Notes under the pieces: model-generated
Database searches by the model: none
Told to the model about the DNA's origin: nothing
Seen by the model: only the letters and a program-made list of their open reading frames with translations
DNA from: a virus
UHGV virus genome: UHGV-0034768
DNA: 39,178 nucleotides
Strand: one strand, 5' to 3'
Part shown: positions 2,198 to 30,077 of the stretch, in pieces
Position numbering within the stretch: position 1 is the first letter of the stretch
Layout: each line of letters starts with the position of its first letter
Translations under genes and position numbers: made by a program

Positions 2198-2260
2198 GTC
2201 TAGACTCAAGGTCATTCACAGAGAGTGGCCTTTATGATTAGACTAAACGGAGGATTAACC

Positions 2261-4432
2261 ATGTTTGACCTTAAGAGTATCTGGGGTTCTGACATCGAGA
2301 CCAACGGTCTCCTTGATACAGTATCCCAGTTTCACTGTGGGGTCCTGATTAACGCCGAGTCGAATGAGACCCTTAAGTATGGGGTAGCTCCGATGGTCGG
2401 TATCGTCGGTGGCTTCAAAGAGTATGTTCATAAAGTGGAAGAGATTGCCGCATCTCCTGATGGCATGCTGGTATTCCACAACGGTATCAACTATGACGTA
2501 CCGGCTATCGACAAGCTGAAGCGTCTGTACTTTGGGAAACGTTTTAACTTCCCGAAACACAAGATGATTGATACCTTGGTGCTGGGCCGCTTGATGTATC
2601 CAAACATTAAGTTCTCAGACATGGGTGCTGTGAAAGCTGGTCGTCTGCCACCTCAGATGATGGGACGCCAGTCTCTTGAGGCTTGGGGCTATCGTCTTGG
2701 TGAGATGAAAGGTGAGTACAAGCACGATTACGTTGCCAAGTGCAAGGCTGAAGGTATCGAATATAAGGCTGGGGACGAATGGTTGTTCCCGTCTCAGGAG
2801 ATGCTGGACTATAACGTACAAGACGTTGTGGTCACACTGGCGTTGTTCAAGAAGTTCCTGACTGACAAGTATTACTTCCAGTCTGAACAGTTCGCTTTCG
2901 ACCAGATTTATGCTTTGCGTCTGGAACATGATGCTGCGTGGACCTGTGCAAAGATGGAACGTAACGGCTATCCGATGAACACCGAGATGGTCGAAGGCTT
3001 ATATCGTGAACTCACCGTCAAACGTGCAGAGTTGCTGGACAAGTTGCGTTCAACTTTCGGTAGCTGGTATGCACCGAAGGGAGGCAAGGAGTTCTTCAAG
3101 CACCCACGTACAGGCAAGGACCTTCCGAAGTATCCGCGAGTCGTGTATCCTAAGGTCGGTGGCATCTTTAAGAAGCCGAAGAACAAAGCTCAACGCTTAG
3201 GTCTTGAACCTTGTGAACGCGATACGCGAGACACGATGGAAGGAGCACCATTCACGCCAATAACTTACGTTGAGTTTAATCCGGGAAGCGGAGACCACTT
3301 AGCGAAAGTCCTGATGGAGCGTGGCTGGGAACCAGTGGACTTCACTGACACCGGGAAGCCTGTAGTCGATGACGAGACGTTAGAACACGTTAAGTTGCCA
3401 GACGCAGAGGCTCAGGCGTGCGTAGAGCTGGTCCGTGAGTATCTGGTAGTCCAGAAGCGCATAGGTCAAGCGGCTGAAGGTAAGAACGCATGGTTGAAAC
3501 TTGTAGGTCCAGACGGACGTATGCACGGTGCAATCAACCCATGCGGTGCAGTAACAGGACGTGCTACCCATAGTACACCAAACATGGCTCAGGTCCCGGC
3601 TAACGGTGCCCCATACGGTGAGACTTGCCGTGGTGCTTTCGGTGCAGCGTGGAACAAGAAGGACGGTAAGCCAGACCCTTGGATTCAAGTTGGTGTGGAT
3701 GCCTCAGGTCTTGAGCTTCGTTGTCTTGGGAACAGAGCGGCTCCGTTTGATGGTGGTGCCTATGCGAAGACTGTGGTCGAAGGTGATATACACTGGGCCA
3801 ATGCTGTCAACGCGGGTTTAGCACCTAACGTCCCACGCGATAAGTCGAACCACGACCATGAGGCTTTCCGTAACAACGCTAAGACGTTCATCTATGCGTT
3901 CCTGTATGGTGCAGGGGCCGCTAAGATTGGACTGATAGTCGGCGGTGGTAAGAAGGAAGGTTCGGCCTTGATGAAGAAATTCATTGAGGGTACACCAGCT
4001 ATCAAGGACCTGCGAGAGGCTGTGCAGAACACGCTCATCTCAGAGTCGAAGTGGGTAGATGGTGAGAACATCGTGAAATGGAAACGTCGCTGGCTGAAAG
4101 GTCTGGATGGTCGCCGCATTCACATCCGGTCGCCACACTCAGCACTGAACGCCTTACTTCAAGGTGATGGTGCGGTAGTCTGTAAGCACTGGATTGTTGA
4201 GACTGAGCGTATGCTCGAAGAGGCCGGGTATGTCCACGGCTGGGAAGGAGACTTTGCGTACATGGCATGGGTCCACGACGAATTGCAGATTGCAGCTCGG
4301 AACATGGAGATTGCCGAAGATATTCGCAGGATTGCTCAACTTGCTATGCGGAAGGTGGGTGAGTTCTATAACTTTAAATGTGTCCTTGATACCGAAGGTA
4401 AGATTGGACCAACGTGGAAGGAGTGTCACTAA
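2261..4432 (+). CDS. gp5: DNA polymerase (T7 gp5-like, family A, with 3'-5' exonuclease and thioredoxin-binding insert)
   Basis: Start set at MFDLKSIWGSDIETNGLL (aligns with T7 MIVSDIEANALL) with GGAGGA RBS; conserved blocks FHNGxxYDVPA, GAVTGRATH, KTFIYGFLYGAG, MAWVHDE; C-terminus ...GPTWKECH like T7. Confidence 0.95.
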   Translation: MFDLKSIWGSDIETNGLLDTVSQFHCGVLINAESNETLKYGVAPMVGIVGGFKEYVHKVEEIAASPDGMLVFHNGINYDVPAIDKLKRLYFGKRFNFPKHKMIDTLVLGRLMYPNIKFSDMGAVKAGRLPPQMMGRQSLEAWGYRLGEMKGEYKHDYVAKCKAEGIEYKAGDEWLFPSQEMLDYNVQDVVVTLALFKKFLTDKYYFQSEQFAFDQIYALRLEHDAAWTCAKMERNGYPMNTEMVEGLYRELTVKRAELLDKLRSTFGSWYAPKGGKEFFKHPRTGKDLPKYPRVVYPKVGGIFKKPKNKAQRLGLEPCERDTRDTMEGAPFTPITYVEFNPGSGDHLAKVLMERGWEPVDFTDTGKPVVDDETLEHVKLPDAEAQACVELVREYLVVQKRIGQAAEGKNAWLKLVGPDGRMHGAINPCGAVTGRATHSTPNMAQVPANGAPYGETCRGAFGAAWNKKDGKPDPWIQVGVDASGLELRCLGNRAAPFDGGAYAKTVVEGDIHWANAVNAGLAPNVPRDKSNHDHEAFRNNAKTFIYAFLYGAGAAKIGLIVGGGKKEGSALMKKFIEGTPAIKDLREAVQNTLISESKWVDGENIVKWKRRWLKGLDGRRIHIRSPHSALNALLQGDGAVVCKHWIVETERMLEEAGYVHGWEGDFAYMAWVHDELQIAARNMEIAEDIRRIAQLAMRKVGEFYNFKCVLDTEGKIGPTWKECH

Positions 4433-4716
4433 TGGCTATTACTAAACGTATTCGCGTGAGTTTTGATCTGAAGGTGGTTATTAGCTCAAAGGAAGAAGAG
4501 ACCATGTGTAGTCAGTTAGCGGAGATGACTAAATGCTACGCTGATGGTGAGAAGCTGGATGGACTTCAGTTGGCTCTGGTCAAAACAGCAATAGACTCAG
4601 GGCCTGAGTCTGCCCTTGAAATTGCCATCAAGAAGACCATCAAGGAGGAGCTGGTGGACGCCTTTGGTGATGACCAGTTTGGAGTATCCAACCTGCGATT
4701 CGAGGTCAAGCAATGA
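4432..4716 (+). CDS. gp5.5: gp5.5-like protein (T7 gp5.5 binds host H-NS)
   Basis: Starts MAITKRIRVSFDL resembling T7 gp5.5 MAMTKK.KVSFDV; ATG overlaps the polymerase stop. Confidence 0.7.
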   Translation: MAITKRIRVSFDLKVVISSKEEETMCSQLAEMTKCYADGEKLDGLQLALVKTAIDSGPESALEIAIKKTIKEELVDAFGDDQFGVSNLRFEVKQ

Positions 4717-4922
4717 GTGAATACTTACGGGTCCTAGCGGCCCTTAAGTCCTGCCCGAAGACCTTCCAGTCCAACTATGTGCGCAACAACGCTGCACTTG
4801 TGGCTGAGGCTGCGAGTCGTGGACATATAAGCTGCCTGTCTATGGATGGTCGTAACAACGGTGCGTGGGAGATTACTGCTGCTGGCACCAAGTTCCTGAA
4901 CCAACACGGAGGCTGTTTATGA
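4713..4922 (+). CDS. gp5.7: gp5.7-like protein
   Basis: 69 aa with near-identity to T7 gp5.7 over KSCPKTFQSNYVRNNA.LVAEAASRGHISCL. Confidence 0.85.
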   Translation: MSEYLRVLAALKSCPKTFQSNYVRNNAALVAEAASRGHISCLSMDGRNNGAWEITAAGTKFLNQHGGCL

Positions 4923-5155
4923 GTGAATTGGATTTACTGAAGAAGTTTGACGATCTTATGGCACACCTTAATGGTGAAGAGAACTCAATGGCTGAAGAGT
5001 TCCGCGAGGCTCTAGCAGCTAAGTTAGACAGTGCAGCTGATGATCGACTCTGGCGGGAGTGCTTGGAGTCTGGCGGGGTTAACAACTGGTGTTGGTTCTC
5101 TGAATCACTGGCTGAAGGTGGATACTACAAGGAGGACGACGATGACTTCGAATAA
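4919..5155 (+). CDS. hypothetical acidic protein at the gp5.9 position
   Basis: 78 aa starting MSELDLL (ATGA overlap with previous stop), highly acidic C-terminus EDDDDFE; same position as T7 gp5.9 but no clear similarity. Confidence 0.55.
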   Translation: MSELDLLKKFDDLMAHLNGEENSMAEEFREALAAKLDSAADDRLWRECLESGGVNNWCWFSESLAEGGYYKEDDDDFE

Positions 5156-6011
5156 GAAGATAGCTCTGGTGCTGGATGGTGACTATCTGGTCTTCTCTTC
5201 TATGGCTGCTGCCGAGGACGAGACGGACTGGGGTGATGACATCTGGACCCTCATCTGCGACCACGAGAAAGCTCGTCGTATCCTTGAGAACACTATCGCT
5301 GAAATCGTTAAGAAGCGTAAGGCGTGGAAAGACGCTAAGATTGTGATGTGCTTCACCGACGATGAAAACTGGCGCAAGTCCATCCTGCCTACCTATAAGG
5401 CCAACCGTAAAGGTTCTCGCAAGCCTGTAGGTTACAAGAAGTTCGTAGCCGAAGTAATGGCTGACCCACGGTTCAACAGCTTCCTGCGTCCTACGCTTGA
5501 GGGTGATGACTGTATGGGCATCATCGGGACTCGACCTCAGATTGTGGGCTGTGACCATGCGGTGCTGGTGTCCTGTGATAAGGACTTCAAGACCATCCCG
5601 AACTGTGAGTTCTTCTGGTTAACCACTGGTGAAATACTTAGCCATACTACTGCCGAGGCAGACTATTGGCATATGGAGCAAACCATCAAGGGTGATACCA
5701 CTGATGGCTACGGCGGCATTCCTGGGATGGGTGAGGACACTACTCGGGCGTTCCTTGACGAGCCGTACTACTTCGTGCAGGAGAGCCGTGAGCTTAAGAC
5801 TGGCAAGAACAAAGGCCAGATTAAGACTGAGTGGAAGAAGTACCCGAAGCGTGAAGACATGACGCTGTGGGACTGCATGGTGACTCTGGCTGCTAAAGCT
5901 GGGATGACCGAGGAGGAGCTTCTGGTCCAAGCTCAGGTCGCTCGTATTTGTCGAGCATCTGACTATGACCCTAAGTCCAAGGAGGTCATCCTGTGGACAC
6001 CATCCATGTAA
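5142..6011 (+). CDS. gp6: 5'-3' exonuclease (T7 gp6-like)
   Basis: Start at MTSNKKIALVLDGDYLVF with AGGAGGA RBS; conserved PVGYKKF, CDKDFKTIPNC, TIKGDTTDGY, WDCMV..AKAGMTEE as in T7 gene 6. Confidence 0.95.
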   Translation: MTSNKKIALVLDGDYLVFSSMAAAEDETDWGDDIWTLICDHEKARRILENTIAEIVKKRKAWKDAKIVMCFTDDENWRKSILPTYKANRKGSRKPVGYKKFVAEVMADPRFNSFLRPTLEGDDCMGIIGTRPQIVGCDHAVLVSCDKDFKTIPNCEFFWLTTGEILSHTTAEADYWHMEQTIKGDTTDGYGGIPGMGEDTTRAFLDEPYYFVQESRELKTGKNKGQIKTEWKKYPKREDMTLWDCMVTLAAKAGMTEEELLVQAQVARICRASDYDPKSKEVILWTPSM

Positions 6012-15743: not shown

Positions 15744-18026
15744 ATGGCTAGTAATATTGAATCAGCTCTGGCTAATCGGACTATGGGTCGCGGCAGAGCG
15801 CCGGGTAAAACTATTGCCGTCAACTATCAAGCAGCCAACGTTCAGGCTCCGACTGGTGACTCCGGTCTGGCCCGTGCGTTAACCAACTTCGTTGAGTCTG
15901 GGACTGGATTGTACAAGCAGTTCAAGGACGAGGAGAAGACCAGAGCTGACGAGCGGTCTAACGAGATTATCCGTAAGCTGACACCTCAGCAAAGACGTGA
16001 GGCTATCCAGAACGGCACATTGCTGTATCAGGATGACCCTTACGCTATGGAAGCACTTCGAGTCAAGACTGGTCGTAATGCTGCCTTTGCTGTAGACGAC
16101 GAGATTAACGTTAAGATTCAGAACGGTGAGTTCCGTACACGTCAGGAAATGGAAGAATATCGCCACCAGCGACTTCAGGATGCCGCTAAGTCCTATGCTG
16201 AAGAGGCGGGTATTAACCCTACCGACGAGTTCTTCCAGCGTGGATTCAACGATAACATCACGGACCGAAACATCGCTATCTACGGGTCCTTCAATAAGTA
16301 TTTCAGCAAGCAGTCTGAAGAGACAGCGATGTTGAACACTCGTATTGAGATGAACTCGTTCCTTAACGATGGAGACCTGATGCGTTCGCCTGAGTCTGGA
16401 AAGACCTTCATGGCCTACCTTCGAGATGGACTGACGACTGCCTCTATACCTTCTGACCAGCGAGCACGGGAGGTCATTACCCAGACGGTCCGTGACGCAA
16501 TCCAGAAGTCCGGTGGCTCAAACTTCCTACAGCAAGTTCGAGGCGAGCGAATCACCCTTAACGGTGTGGATGCTACAGTCGAAGAGATTGTAGGACCTGA
16601 TGTCTTCAACGCTGCTATTGTTGAGGCACAGGGCACTGAGTACAAGCTGGTGGCTAAGTATCAGGAAGACTTGGCTTTAGGCGTTCAGTCTGCTATTCTT
16701 CAGGACGACCCGACCATCGGTCTGGCCCAGATTCAGAAACTCAAGGAGCAGAACAACCTGCTTCAACCTGGTGAAGAACTCACGCCTCAGCGTCAGATGC
16801 TTATTAATGCCGAAGCCAGCTTGCTTGAAGCGGTCAAGCGTAAGTCTGCTGAACAGGCGAAGGAGAACACTAAGTTAATCCAGACCCAGAACAAGCAACT
16901 GGTCATTGACCAGGTGTATCAGCGACGTCTGGCTGGGGACAACGTGTCCACCAACTATGAGGACCTTCCGGTCTCTGACGCTACAGGTGAATTCAAGCGT
17001 TCAGACATGAACAACTATGCGTCTGCCAAGCTACAGCAGATTGACCAGATGGACATCCCTGAGGCTGCTAAGGACGCTCAGAAGGTGGCATTGTTAAGAG
17101 CTGACACTAACAACGGTCCGTTCCGTAATGCCTTCCAGACGCTTACTCAGGACGCTGCTGGTGAGTGGCAAGCTGCGGTCATCCGTGGACAGTACGACCC
17201 AGACAAGATGAAACGCTTCGAGTCTCTTCGTCGTGCCTACACTCAGGACCCTTCAAGTTTCGCTGCTCTGTATCCTGACCAAGCTCAGTTGTTCTCTACG
17301 TTCGACCAGATGGACAAGATGGGTCTGGACCCTCAGACGATGATTGAAGCTGATAAGCAAGCTGCAAGTCAAAGCCGTGAGATGCGCATGGAGTCAGACA
17401 AGGCGTGGCAGGAGTTGAAGAACGACTCTCGGAATAAGGACCTTTCGCGTCTTCCAACGTCTCTGGACTCAAGTGCTCGTAAGGTCTGGGACTCATGGTA
17501 CTATCGTACAGGTAACGCTGACGCTGCAACTCAGCAGACTCAACGCTGGCTGAATGAGAACACCGTAACGTTCCAGTCTGAAGGTTCTGACGGTAAGTCA
17601 ATCGGCATGGTGTCCAAGCACCAGCTTATGGTCGGGGATAACCCAGAGTCGTGGCAGGTTGGGCGAGACATTATAGACACCGCTCGTCAGCAGCTCATTA
17701 AGGCTAACCATTGGATAGTGAACTCTCAGTTGTCCGTTGTTGAACAGAACGGCTCTATCTTCCTCCAAGACGCTACAGGTACTATTCGTATTCGCTACGA
17801 TAAAGAACTTGTAGGTAAACTCTACCGCGAACAACAGCAGAAGGCACAAGATGCCGCATACGCTCAGGCAGAACGTGACGCTAACAAGCGAGCGCGTATC
17901 GTCGGGACTAAAGCTGCTGGTGACAAACGTCGAGCTGACCGAGAGGACAACATCGAGAAGCGCGGAGGGATGTACAATGACGTCTCACTGGAGGGTATCG
18001 CAAACGTACTAATCGGTAAGGAGTAA
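15744..18026 (+). CDS. gp15: internal virion protein C (T7 gp15-like)
   Basis: 760 aa (T7 gp15 is 747 aa), RBS GAGGAGG, synteny. Confidence 0.9.
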   Translation: MASNIESALANRTMGRGRAPGKTIAVNYQAANVQAPTGDSGLARALTNFVESGTGLYKQFKDEEKTRADERSNEIIRKLTPQQRREAIQNGTLLYQDDPYAMEALRVKTGRNAAFAVDDEINVKIQNGEFRTRQEMEEYRHQRLQDAAKSYAEEAGINPTDEFFQRGFNDNITDRNIAIYGSFNKYFSKQSEETAMLNTRIEMNSFLNDGDLMRSPESGKTFMAYLRDGLTTASIPSDQRAREVITQTVRDAIQKSGGSNFLQQVRGERITLNGVDATVEEIVGPDVFNAAIVEAQGTEYKLVAKYQEDLALGVQSAILQDDPTIGLAQIQKLKEQNNLLQPGEELTPQRQMLINAEASLLEAVKRKSAEQAKENTKLIQTQNKQLVIDQVYQRRLAGDNVSTNYEDLPVSDATGEFKRSDMNNYASAKLQQIDQMDIPEAAKDAQKVALLRADTNNGPFRNAFQTLTQDAAGEWQAAVIRGQYDPDKMKRFESLRRAYTQDPSSFAALYPDQAQLFSTFDQMDKMGLDPQTMIEADKQAASQSREMRMESDKAWQELKNDSRNKDLSRLPTSLDSSARKVWDSWYYRTGNADAATQQTQRWLNENTVTFQSEGSDGKSIGMVSKHQLMVGDNPESWQVGRDIIDTARQQLIKANHWIVNSQLSVVEQNGSIFLQDATGTIRIRYDKELVGKLYREQQQKAQDAAYAQAERDANKRARIVGTKAAGDKRRADREDNIEKRGGMYNDVSLEGIANVLIGKE

Positions 18027-29732: not shown

Positions 29733-30077
29733 ATGGAACGTAACGCTAACGCATACTATGAGCTGCTGGCTGCAACCGTTGAAGCATTTAACGAGCGTAT
29801 TCAGTATGACGAAATAGCTGAAGGCGATGAGTACCACGATGCACTGCATGAGGTCGTAGACGGTCAGGTCCCGCATTATTACCACGAGATTTTCACGGTG
29901 ATGGCTGCTGATGGTATAGACCACGAGTTTGAGGACTCTGGGCTGATGCCTGAGACCAAGGACGTAACGCGTATACTGCAAGCTCGCATCTATGAGGCAT
30001 TGTATAACGACGTGTCTGATAGCTCGGATGTGGTCTGGTTTGAGGCTGAAGAGGAAGACGAAGAGGACTGCGAGTGA
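29733..30077 (+). CDS. ocr: Ocr, DNA-mimic anti-restriction protein (T7 gp0.3-like)
   Basis: 114 aa, very acidic; blocks [49 protein letters not shown] match T7 Ocr ([41 protein letters not shown]). Confidence 0.95.

Follow-up and report, generated by a model that had tools for sequence, protein, structure and literature searches.

Inhibitors of the RecBCD helicase-nuclease decide the survival of linear phage DNA, and guard systems such as retron Ec48 and P2 Old watch for RecBCD inhibition. Among these inhibitors, gp5.9 has been studied only in its T7/T3 form. T7 gp5.9 forms a parallel coiled-coil dimer, which is braced by a beta-sheet at the N-terminus, and it contacts RecB and RecC through residues D4, D11, D15, D21, E24, E36, D38, E39, and E45 (PMC9836394). 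Lambda Gam is a small acidic helical dimer that blocks the DNA site of RecBCD, and both proteins keep RecBCD from DNA by such blocking (PMC9836394). The present analysis deals with a strongly acidic protein of 78 amino acids (aa) that is encoded by the open reading frame (ORF) at positions 4919–5155 of the UHGV virus genome UHGV-0034768, a stretch of 39,178 nucleotides (nt) referred to below as the window. Judging from profile comparisons, this protein is probably a distant, rearranged homologue of gp5.9 and not merely an analogue, and it is a candidate decoy for RecBCD.

As a phage genome, the window is of the T7 type and falls into the K1F group (Kayfunavirus-like), and the 1-kb stretch around the ORF shows 92.9% identity with Kayfunavirus PDP351P4 and 90.8% identity with Escherichia phage CLB_P1. 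The original prediction, which was made from the letters of the window, had assigned the ORF to the gp5.9 position. The neighbourhood bears this out, as the ORF lies between the homologues of gp5.7 and the gene 6 exonuclease, and the order 5.5, 5.7, ORF, 6 is the T7 order with gene 5.9 in the ORF's place:

4432–4716, + strand: gp5.5 homologue (H-NS inhibitor family); phrog_1452, E 1e-26
4713–4922, + strand: gp5.7 homologue, 69 aa, directly upstream of the ORF; phrog_1334, E 1.8e-39, and the CLB_P1 gp5.7 annotation
4908–4912, + strand: Shine-Dalgarno sequence GGAGG, 6 nt upstream of the ORF's ATG; read from the sequence
4919–5155, + strand: coding sequence of the 78-aa acidic protein; PF25708, 39.7 bits; phrog_6163, E 1.2e-22; dN/dS 0.18
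5129–5136, + strand: gene 6 Shine-Dalgarno sequence, AAGGAGGA, within the tail codons K-E-D (AAG-GAG-GAC); read from the sequence
5142–6011, + strand: gene 6 homologue, T7-type 5'-3' exonuclease; phrog_107, E 3.5e-80; PF02739; CLB_P1 annotation

The ORF runs from an ATG at 4919–4921 to a TAA stop at 5153–5155, with 77 sense codons after the ATG. Its start overlaps the gp5.7 stop TGA (4920–4922) as ATGA (4919–4922), which suggests translational coupling. At the other end, the final 14 nt of the ORF overlap gene 6 (ATG 5142), and the codons GAT-GAC-TTC-GAA-TAA hold the gene 6 start and its first codons. The T7 gene 5.9/gene 6 overlap is likewise 14 nt long (T7 coordinates 17359–17517 and 17504 onward), and the T7 arrangement is alike in that the gene 6 Shine-Dalgarno sequence, GGAGGAGA, lies inside ...LEEK... 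of gp5.9.

The family link was obtained from profile comparisons. The 78-aa protein passes PF25708 (Phage_T7_Gp5_9), whose curated gathering threshold is 24.5 bits, with 39.7 bits (E 4.5e-10), its residues 21–74 aligning with profile positions 3–46 of 46, and the same precomputed Pfam match is present in 20 of 22 close homologues. An exhaustive profile search found 129 relatives among 50%-identity cluster representatives. Three alignments were used for comparison, namely A1 for the window family, A2 for the close relatives of T7 gp5.9, and A3 for a short family that is named here after its GVDNW motif. Members of the last are acidic proteins of ~50 aa with the pattern xETVTIxKxEYxxLxxDxxWLxCLExGGVDNWxGYxxAL followed by an acidic tail. 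Residues 35–76 of the window protein match A3 with an hhalign probability of 99.2% (E 8.5e-20), and the helix-CLExxGVDNWxG[YF]-helix core (phrog_6163 / 6234 / 4790) is present, with the motif written as GVNNW.

The connection to T7 gp5.9 runs through natural intermediates. A profile search seeded with T7-type gp5.9 led to ~60-aa proteins (P0173–P0181; for example, MSRDTVTITRDAWNDLQKYIQALEKDQEFLHALQACGVDNWEGYSDAVDMLEEEDI), in which residues 1–31 are 58% identical to T7 gp5.9 and the remainder is the GVDNW module. In phiSG-JL2, Yepe2, Yep-phi, SH1/SH2, and many T7-like phages of Klebsiella, Yersinia, and Serratia, these proteins carry the annotation gp5.9, and they occur in 162 phage records in the same slot. 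In hhalign, comparison of the intermediates with the T7-type proteins (residues 1–31) and with the short GVDNW family (over the full length) gives 99.1% in both cases. Against the window family, the probability is 98.1%, with intermediate residues 15–52 on window residues 31–68. The Pfam grouping is, on these alignments, backed by real intermediates. Of the two options in the original prediction, a functional analogue of gp5.9 or a different mimic, the notion of a mere analogue did not survive, because PF25708 and the intermediates mark the protein as a probable distant homologue.

The protein can be divided into two modules and a tail:

4919–5020, + strand: N-terminal module, aa 1–34 (LLKKFDxLMxHLNGEENxMAEEFREAL); the most conserved block of alignment A1
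5021–5122, + strand: GVDNW module, aa 35–68 (LDSAADDRLWRECLESGGVNNWCWFSESLAEG), which takes in the last part of the long helix, the turn with two Gly residues, and the short helix that follows; from hhalign and the model
5075–5089, + strand: hallmark motif as G-V-N-N-W, aa 53–57; from the comparison of the relatives' motifs
5123–5152, + strand: acidic C-terminal tail YYKEDDDDFE, net charge -5, predicted to be disordered; from charge and the predicted local distance difference test (pLDDT)

An AlphaFold2 model built on a 69-sequence alignment (mean pLDDT 82, predicted template modelling score 0.61) consists of a helix (3–16), the loop LNGEEN, a 30-residue helix (23–52), the GG-VNNW turn, a short helix (57–66), and the disordered tail. 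The N-terminal module is thus predicted to comprise the first helix, the loop, and the beginning of the long helix. The conserved core of the family is the helix-GVDNW-helix module, and at least three different N-terminal pieces precede it in the family: a T7-like piece (VTIPRDAWND..YI..LE), a generic piece (VTIxKxEY), and the KFDxLMSHLNGEENxMAEEFREAL piece of the window. The 78-aa protein represents a third architecture, in which the GVDNW module is kept and the T7-like half is dropped. The original prediction had stated correctly that it is longer than T7 gp5.9 (78 aa versus 52 aa), and it carries an extra N-terminal module in comparison with the T7 protein. The short GVDNW proteins (phrog_6234; for instance, SPO1 gp21.6 and those of Enterococcus Saphexavirus) share the core, the acidity, and the acidic tail with the 78-aa protein, but they are ~50 aa long, start with the VTIxKxEY strand motif, and are without the window's N-module.

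The window N-module (KFDxLMSHLNxEENxMAEEFR) also stands alone as an ORF of ~40 aa, as in ECBP5 (42571–42657). It also precedes other, mostly acidic, unrelated C-terminal parts (P0053, P0055, P0063, P0072, P0121; phrog_13236, phrog_24684). On such comparisons, it behaves as an independent, swappable unit.

The strong acidity that had been read from the sequence was confirmed by calculation. The protein contains 10 D and 12 E against 4 K and 3 R, which gives a net charge of -15 with 28% acidic residues, and its computed isoelectric point (pI) of 4.08 equals that calculated for T7 gp5.9. Among the 47 forward ORFs in the window, the protein takes second place in acidity, and only the Ocr homologue ranks higher. 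The charge is distributed over the whole chain, with -6 in residues 1–34 and -9 in residues 35–78. The relatives are acidic as well, with a median net charge of -13 and a median pI of 4.09 among the 98 of them that are 100 aa or less in length. When compared with the CLB_P1 orthologue (gp5.8), the gene shows a ratio of non-synonymous to synonymous substitution rates (dN/dS) of 0.18, based on 16 synonymous and 13 non-synonymous codon differences. Because of this ratio and the 129 relatives, the ORF is a real gene under purifying selection.

The extremely acidic C-terminus, YYKEDDDDFE, had been emphasised in the original prediction. Its charge is as described (net -5 versus a family median of -4), but the emphasis on it was misplaced, as the tail is variable, disordered, and constrained by gene 6. 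In the AlphaFold model, residues 71–78 have a pLDDT of 49. In CLB_P1, the closest annotated orthologue, the C-terminus reads KEYDHDFW, so the run of four D residues is not invariant. Two to three tail codons double as the ribosome-binding site and start of gene 6, and the tail is therefore partly doubly constrained. No part of the protein is less conserved or less ordered than the tail, which is partly dictated by the gene 6 overlap; the core matters more. An acidic tail is nevertheless a family trait: the last 10 residues carry a net charge of -3 or lower in 70% of the 98 relatives, and the acidic-tailed relatives include some without a T7-type gene 6 downstream. As a separate observation on the T7 side, T7-type gp5.9 proteins end in ELEEKLNG, which hardly varies even at 43–56% overall identity (T7 itself, L001 1060–1118; alignment A2; P0163–P0172), and this stretch coincides with the gene 6 Shine-Dalgarno sequence and start codon. 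The overlapping signals may account for its conservation as much as the function of the protein does.

Within Kayfunavirus, a variable, accessory hotspot is located between 5.7 and 6, in the slot of the ORF. It is empty in CR44b (L003) and Dev2 (L005), and in SFP20 (L004) it holds an unrelated acidic ORF of 110 aa (net charge -13) with no Pfam match. The 78-aa protein was matched at 80% identity or more in 6 of the 222 flank-matching records (PDP351P4, CLB_P1 in two records, yong1, ZH4, and EPr2), and only a minority of Kayfunavirus-like phages carry its gene in the gp5.9 slot. The two-module gene is also found in Berlinvirus PP74, in the same slot, and in several Klebsiella T7-like phages. 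In the Chaseviridae (ST32, flopper), it comes after exonuclease, ligase, and dUTPase genes, gp48 of ST32 lying in an exonuclease/ligase cluster. In Ounavirinae myoviruses of Erwinia and Salmonella, it sits among early genes, and the Erwinia myovirus copies lie amid genes of the rIIB, RegB, and PseT types, without an exonuclease nearby.

Taken together, the 78-aa protein is best read as an acidic, probably dimeric decoy for RecBCD that would protect phage DNA ends and would be encoded by a non-essential middle gene; the probability of this reading is put at about 0.5. The protein would be made with the middle (DNA-metabolism) genes, in translational coupling to gp5.7 and the gene 6 exonuclease. 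Its probable dimer would present a dense negative surface, and this surface would occupy the DNA-binding site of the host RecBCD helicase-nuclease. In this way, the ends of the linear phage DNA would be shielded from RecBCD during the action of the nucleases that the phage itself encodes. In this reading, dimerisation, DNA mimicry, and RecBCD as the target are inferred. The reading is supported by the identity of the slot, the family link, the family-wide acidity, the accessory behaviour, and the association with nuclease genes, and also by proteins in which the core-binding half of T7 gp5.9 is retained and the GVDNW module stands in for the part that binds the RecB arm. These proteins are the intermediates, which retain all five N-half contact acids of T7 (D4, D11, D15, D21, E24). 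There, the coiled coil that binds the RecB arm has given way to the GVDNW module, which suggests that the latter can take over this task. The likeness of T7/T3 gp5.9 (PDB 8B1R, 9GMB) to the 78-aa protein extends to the slot, the gene 6 overlap, the small size, the pI, and PF25708, and the two are linked through the intermediates. The intermediates, which are annotated as "host RecBCD nuclease inhibitor", share with it the slot, the C-terminal GVDNW module, and the acidic tail; they differ in having the T7-like N-half instead of the KFDxLMSHLNGEEN module, and their function is assigned by annotation only. Lambda Gam offers a functional analogy only, with no sequence or fold relationship. The lambda gam gene adjoins exo and bet.

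A hint of dimerisation comes from relatives with more than one module. Tandem GVDNW modules are present in 21 relatives, with a spacing of 28–42 aa in 20 of the 21, which suggests that two GVDNW modules pack or work in pairs. A group of proteins of ~150–265 aa (including P0074, P0076, P0077, P0079, P0085, P0102, P0112, P0115, P0149, P0156, and P0162) has two N-terminal tandem modules and a shared C-terminal domain with motifs like W/FKR..FPKEF.KA.K, for which no Pfam or PHROG annotation was found.

There are a number of observations that weigh against RecBCD as the target, and the first group of them concerns the strength of the link to T7 gp5.9. T7 gp5.9 itself barely passes PF25708, with 27.8 bits against the cutoff of 24.5. 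Several close T7-type homologues are without a PF25708 match, while GVDNW proteins score 50–74 bits. Since short proteins such as P0157 reach 74 bits, the Pfam model is centred on a family that is not T7-like. A hidden Markov model (HMM) built from GVDNW proteins alone gave T7 gp5.9 4.8 bits, a score matched by 135 of 20,000 shuffles (~0.7%), so the Pfam link hinges on the inclusion of the intermediates or of T7-type sequences in the model. T7-type gp5.9 aligns with A3 over its first 15–25 residues only (the VTIP strand), with 47–63% probability. The original prediction had described the ORF and T7 gp5.9 as dissimilar, and in pairwise terms this stands: BLASTP of the 78-aa protein against T7 gp5.9 returned nothing at E<=100, and hhalign of the window family against T7 gp5.9 or the T7-type alignments gave a probability of <1%. 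Beyond pairwise comparison, the two proteins are linked by PF25708 and the intermediates. Even so, the overlap of T7 gp5.9 and the window protein via the intermediates amounts to only a ~17-residue helical stretch. The intermediates may be recombinant, module-swapped mosaics, since an N-half of high identity next to a C-half without detectable similarity makes module exchange at one locus as likely as gradual divergence.

The second group concerns structure and contacts. The N-terminal strand of T7 gp5.9 (D-x-VTIPRD-x-W) has no counterpart in the 78-aa protein, which has MAEEFREAL there, predicted to be helical. The predicted helix is broken by the GG-VDNW turn, whereas T7 gp5.9 forms a continuous parallel coiled coil. 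Of the nine T7 contact acids, the 78-aa protein keeps at most two or three according to alignment A5, which is of low reliability: T7 D4 corresponds to E27, D21 to D37, and possibly E39 to N55 (D in the relatives). The proposed check by structure prediction yielded the helical model, but no solved fold was matched. With the models of pLDDT 67 and pLDDT 82, Foldseek searches of the PDB gave no match below E=1, not even to 8b1r chain P. The search against BFVD returned sequence relatives alone. Phmmer and profile searches of the sequences of solved structures with the protein, A1, and A3 gave chance-level matches only, although T7 gp5.9 is present in that library; the matches to dermonecrotic toxin (E 0.03) and ORF67 were rejected as being at chance level. 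A helical-wheel analysis of the long helix revealed no clear amphipathic or acidic face and was not used as evidence.

Also unfavourable is the pattern of conservation. In A1 and A3, the most conserved residues form the Trp-containing turn and are not the acidic positions, a pattern that fits a specific fold or a binding motif better than DNA mimicry of a generic kind. The motif is GVDNW in 147 of 153 instances among the relatives and GVNNW in none of them, and D55 is conserved to at least 90% in A1 and invariant in A3. In the window, codon 55 (5081–5083) is AAC instead of GAC, a D55N replacement through a single G-to-A change, which may represent a variant with a function, a mutation that is mildly disabling, or an error of sequencing. 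When the literature was searched for the motif and for tested homologues, no experiment on a protein of the GVDNW type was found. T3 gp5.9, which was used as a RecBCD inhibitor in PMC13192584, was considered as a GVDNW-type precedent and rejected, as it is T7-type with one residue difference.

The distribution of the GVDNW module bears on the target as well. A further 116 records contain short GVDNW proteins, with phages of Bacillus, Enterococcus, Streptococcus, Burkholderia, Pseudomonas, and Rhodococcus and a cyanophage among them. Bacillus, Enterococcus, and Streptococcus hosts use AddAB/RexAB. The fact that the module is common in phages of such hosts speaks against RecBCD, and the eLife paper presents the gp5.9 contacts as specific for RecBCD as opposed to AddAB. 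An anti-host decoy with a different or broader target also has to be weighed. It would block another DNA-binding machine or a defence of the nuclease-helicase type; the target could be MukBEF or another complex of the SMC (structural maintenance of chromosomes) type, an AddAB-like enzyme in other hosts, SbcCD, or a DNA-sensing defence, and the N-module would tune the specificity. The presence of the module in phages of Gram-positives, actinobacteria, and cyanobacteria is in its favour, as are the mostly unconserved RecBCD-contact residues, the reuse of the N-module with other acidic C-terminal parts, and the invariant GVDNW turn, which suggests a specific conserved partner. T7 gp5.9 also inhibits MukBEF (PMC7617805), and it triggers type III Sir2-HerA (PMC13434337), so that members of the family can have several partners. 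On the other hand, the module is always in the gp5.9 slot among T7-like phages, the intermediates fuse it to a T7-type N-half with all five RecBCD-contact acids, and the present data indicate no partner besides RecBCD. A decoy with such a target is the main alternative, and it is considered rather unlikely.

A bolder version of this idea takes the GVDNW module for a separate and very widespread phage "warhead" and not for a RecBCD-specific copy of gp5.9. Its range would extend from coliphages to the SPO1, Enterococcus, and Burkholderia phages and cyanophages. The target would be one that is shared by bacteria at large, and helicase-nucleases or SMC-type complexes could provide it with their DNA-end or DNA-capture site; the module would be combined with at least three interchangeable N-modules and sometimes with nucleases. 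In a modular toolkit against the host, the 78-aa protein would then be one cassette, and T7 gp5.9 would be an atypical offshoot that lost the module. This proposal is speculative and is judged unlikely. In Bcep22, the module is found at the end of a 409-aa protein.

Another explanation is that the protein does not inhibit the host and instead serves the exonuclease and recombination machinery of the phage itself, either as an accessory subunit or as a regulator. The translational coupling to gene 6 with its 14-nt overlap would fit such a role. In Delftia phage IME-DE1 (L009 3207–4508), a 433-aa "exonuclease" frame has an N-part of ~145 aa that ends in a GVDNW module (PF25708, 50 bits) and continues from residue ~146 onward into a canonical T7-type exonuclease start (MTERRKLVLLVDADY...). 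This places the module in one frame with the enzyme, but the frame either reflects a natural fusion or comes from a start call that was extended too far. SPO1 gp21.6 sits between SbcD-like and SbcC-like nuclease genes, and ST32 gp48 is close to exonuclease and ligase genes, which also agrees with a helper. Nevertheless, the slot is empty in CR44b and Dev2 despite the same exonuclease, T7 gene 5.9 is annotated as non-essential, and the Erwinia myovirus copies have no exonuclease nearby. A role as exonuclease helper is quite improbable on this balance.

The tail has its own rival explanation, in which the acidic tail with its aromatic residue would mimic the C-terminal tails of single-stranded DNA-binding protein (SSB), gp2.5, or gp4 and compete for docking sites on the polymerase or on SSB-binding proteins of the host. 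The acidic tails of T7 gp2.5 and gp4 end in Phe and dock on T7 DNA polymerase; the tail of the 78-aa protein reads EDDDDFE, and the window's own gp4 ends in WEDQDF. In the 78-aa protein, however, Phe is penultimate and not terminal, and the choice of its codon is dictated by gene 6, whose codons overlap it; the CLB_P1 tail differs, and more distant relatives have purely acidic tails without an aromatic residue. Such mimicry is given very little credence. Least credible of all is an ORF without specific function, whose acidity would be incidental or forced by gene 6: the doubly used tail codons, the dispensable slot in related phages, and D55N at an invariant position are compatible with it, but the dN/dS, the spread of charge along the protein, and 129 diverged relatives in several phage families with conserved motifs and acidity leave it almost no room.

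Upstream of the ORF lie the following genes:

299–1999: primase-helicase gene
2225–4432: DNA polymerase gene, 735 aa

The polymerase gene is uninterrupted in the window; in the CLB_P1 annotation, it is split by the HNH homing endonuclease gp5.3. The most acidic ORF of the window is the homologue of Ocr (gp0.3) at 29733–30077 on the + strand, with 114 aa, a net charge of -28, a pI of 4.05, and a PF08684 match (E 1.7e-31). From its position, the window is a permuted genome beginning at gene 4. Ocr targets type I restriction and BREX. It is also a highly acidic phage DNA mimic, but it differs from the 78-aa protein in fold, family, and target and is an early instead of a middle gene product. Should the 78-aa protein be a mimic too, the phage would have two acidic proteins of the mimic type. 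The minus-strand ORFs at 4873–5085 and 5079–5558 were set aside, as the surrounding known-gene homologues are all on the + strand. No NCBIfam match was found, and no Rfam family across the whole window; the Pfam match of one relative to MC7 (ABC-3C middle component) scored 19.6 bits against a cutoff of 27 and was treated as noise.

The comparison also touches the way in which phage genomes are labelled. Most proteins that are filed or automatically annotated as "gp5.9 / host RecBCD nuclease inhibitor" are, as their alignments indicate, built on a GVDNW module that is absent from T7 gp5.9. The "host RecBCD nuclease inhibitor" labels on Bacillus, Enterococcus, and other phages rest on the PF25708 model or annotation transfer. 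This raises the question of whether the annotation on hundreds of phage genomes, including those of phages of AddAB hosts, is justified. For therapeutic Kayfunavirus phages, such as relatives of K1F and CLB_P1, the presence or absence of the gene could affect the host range on strains with RecBCD-guarding defences.

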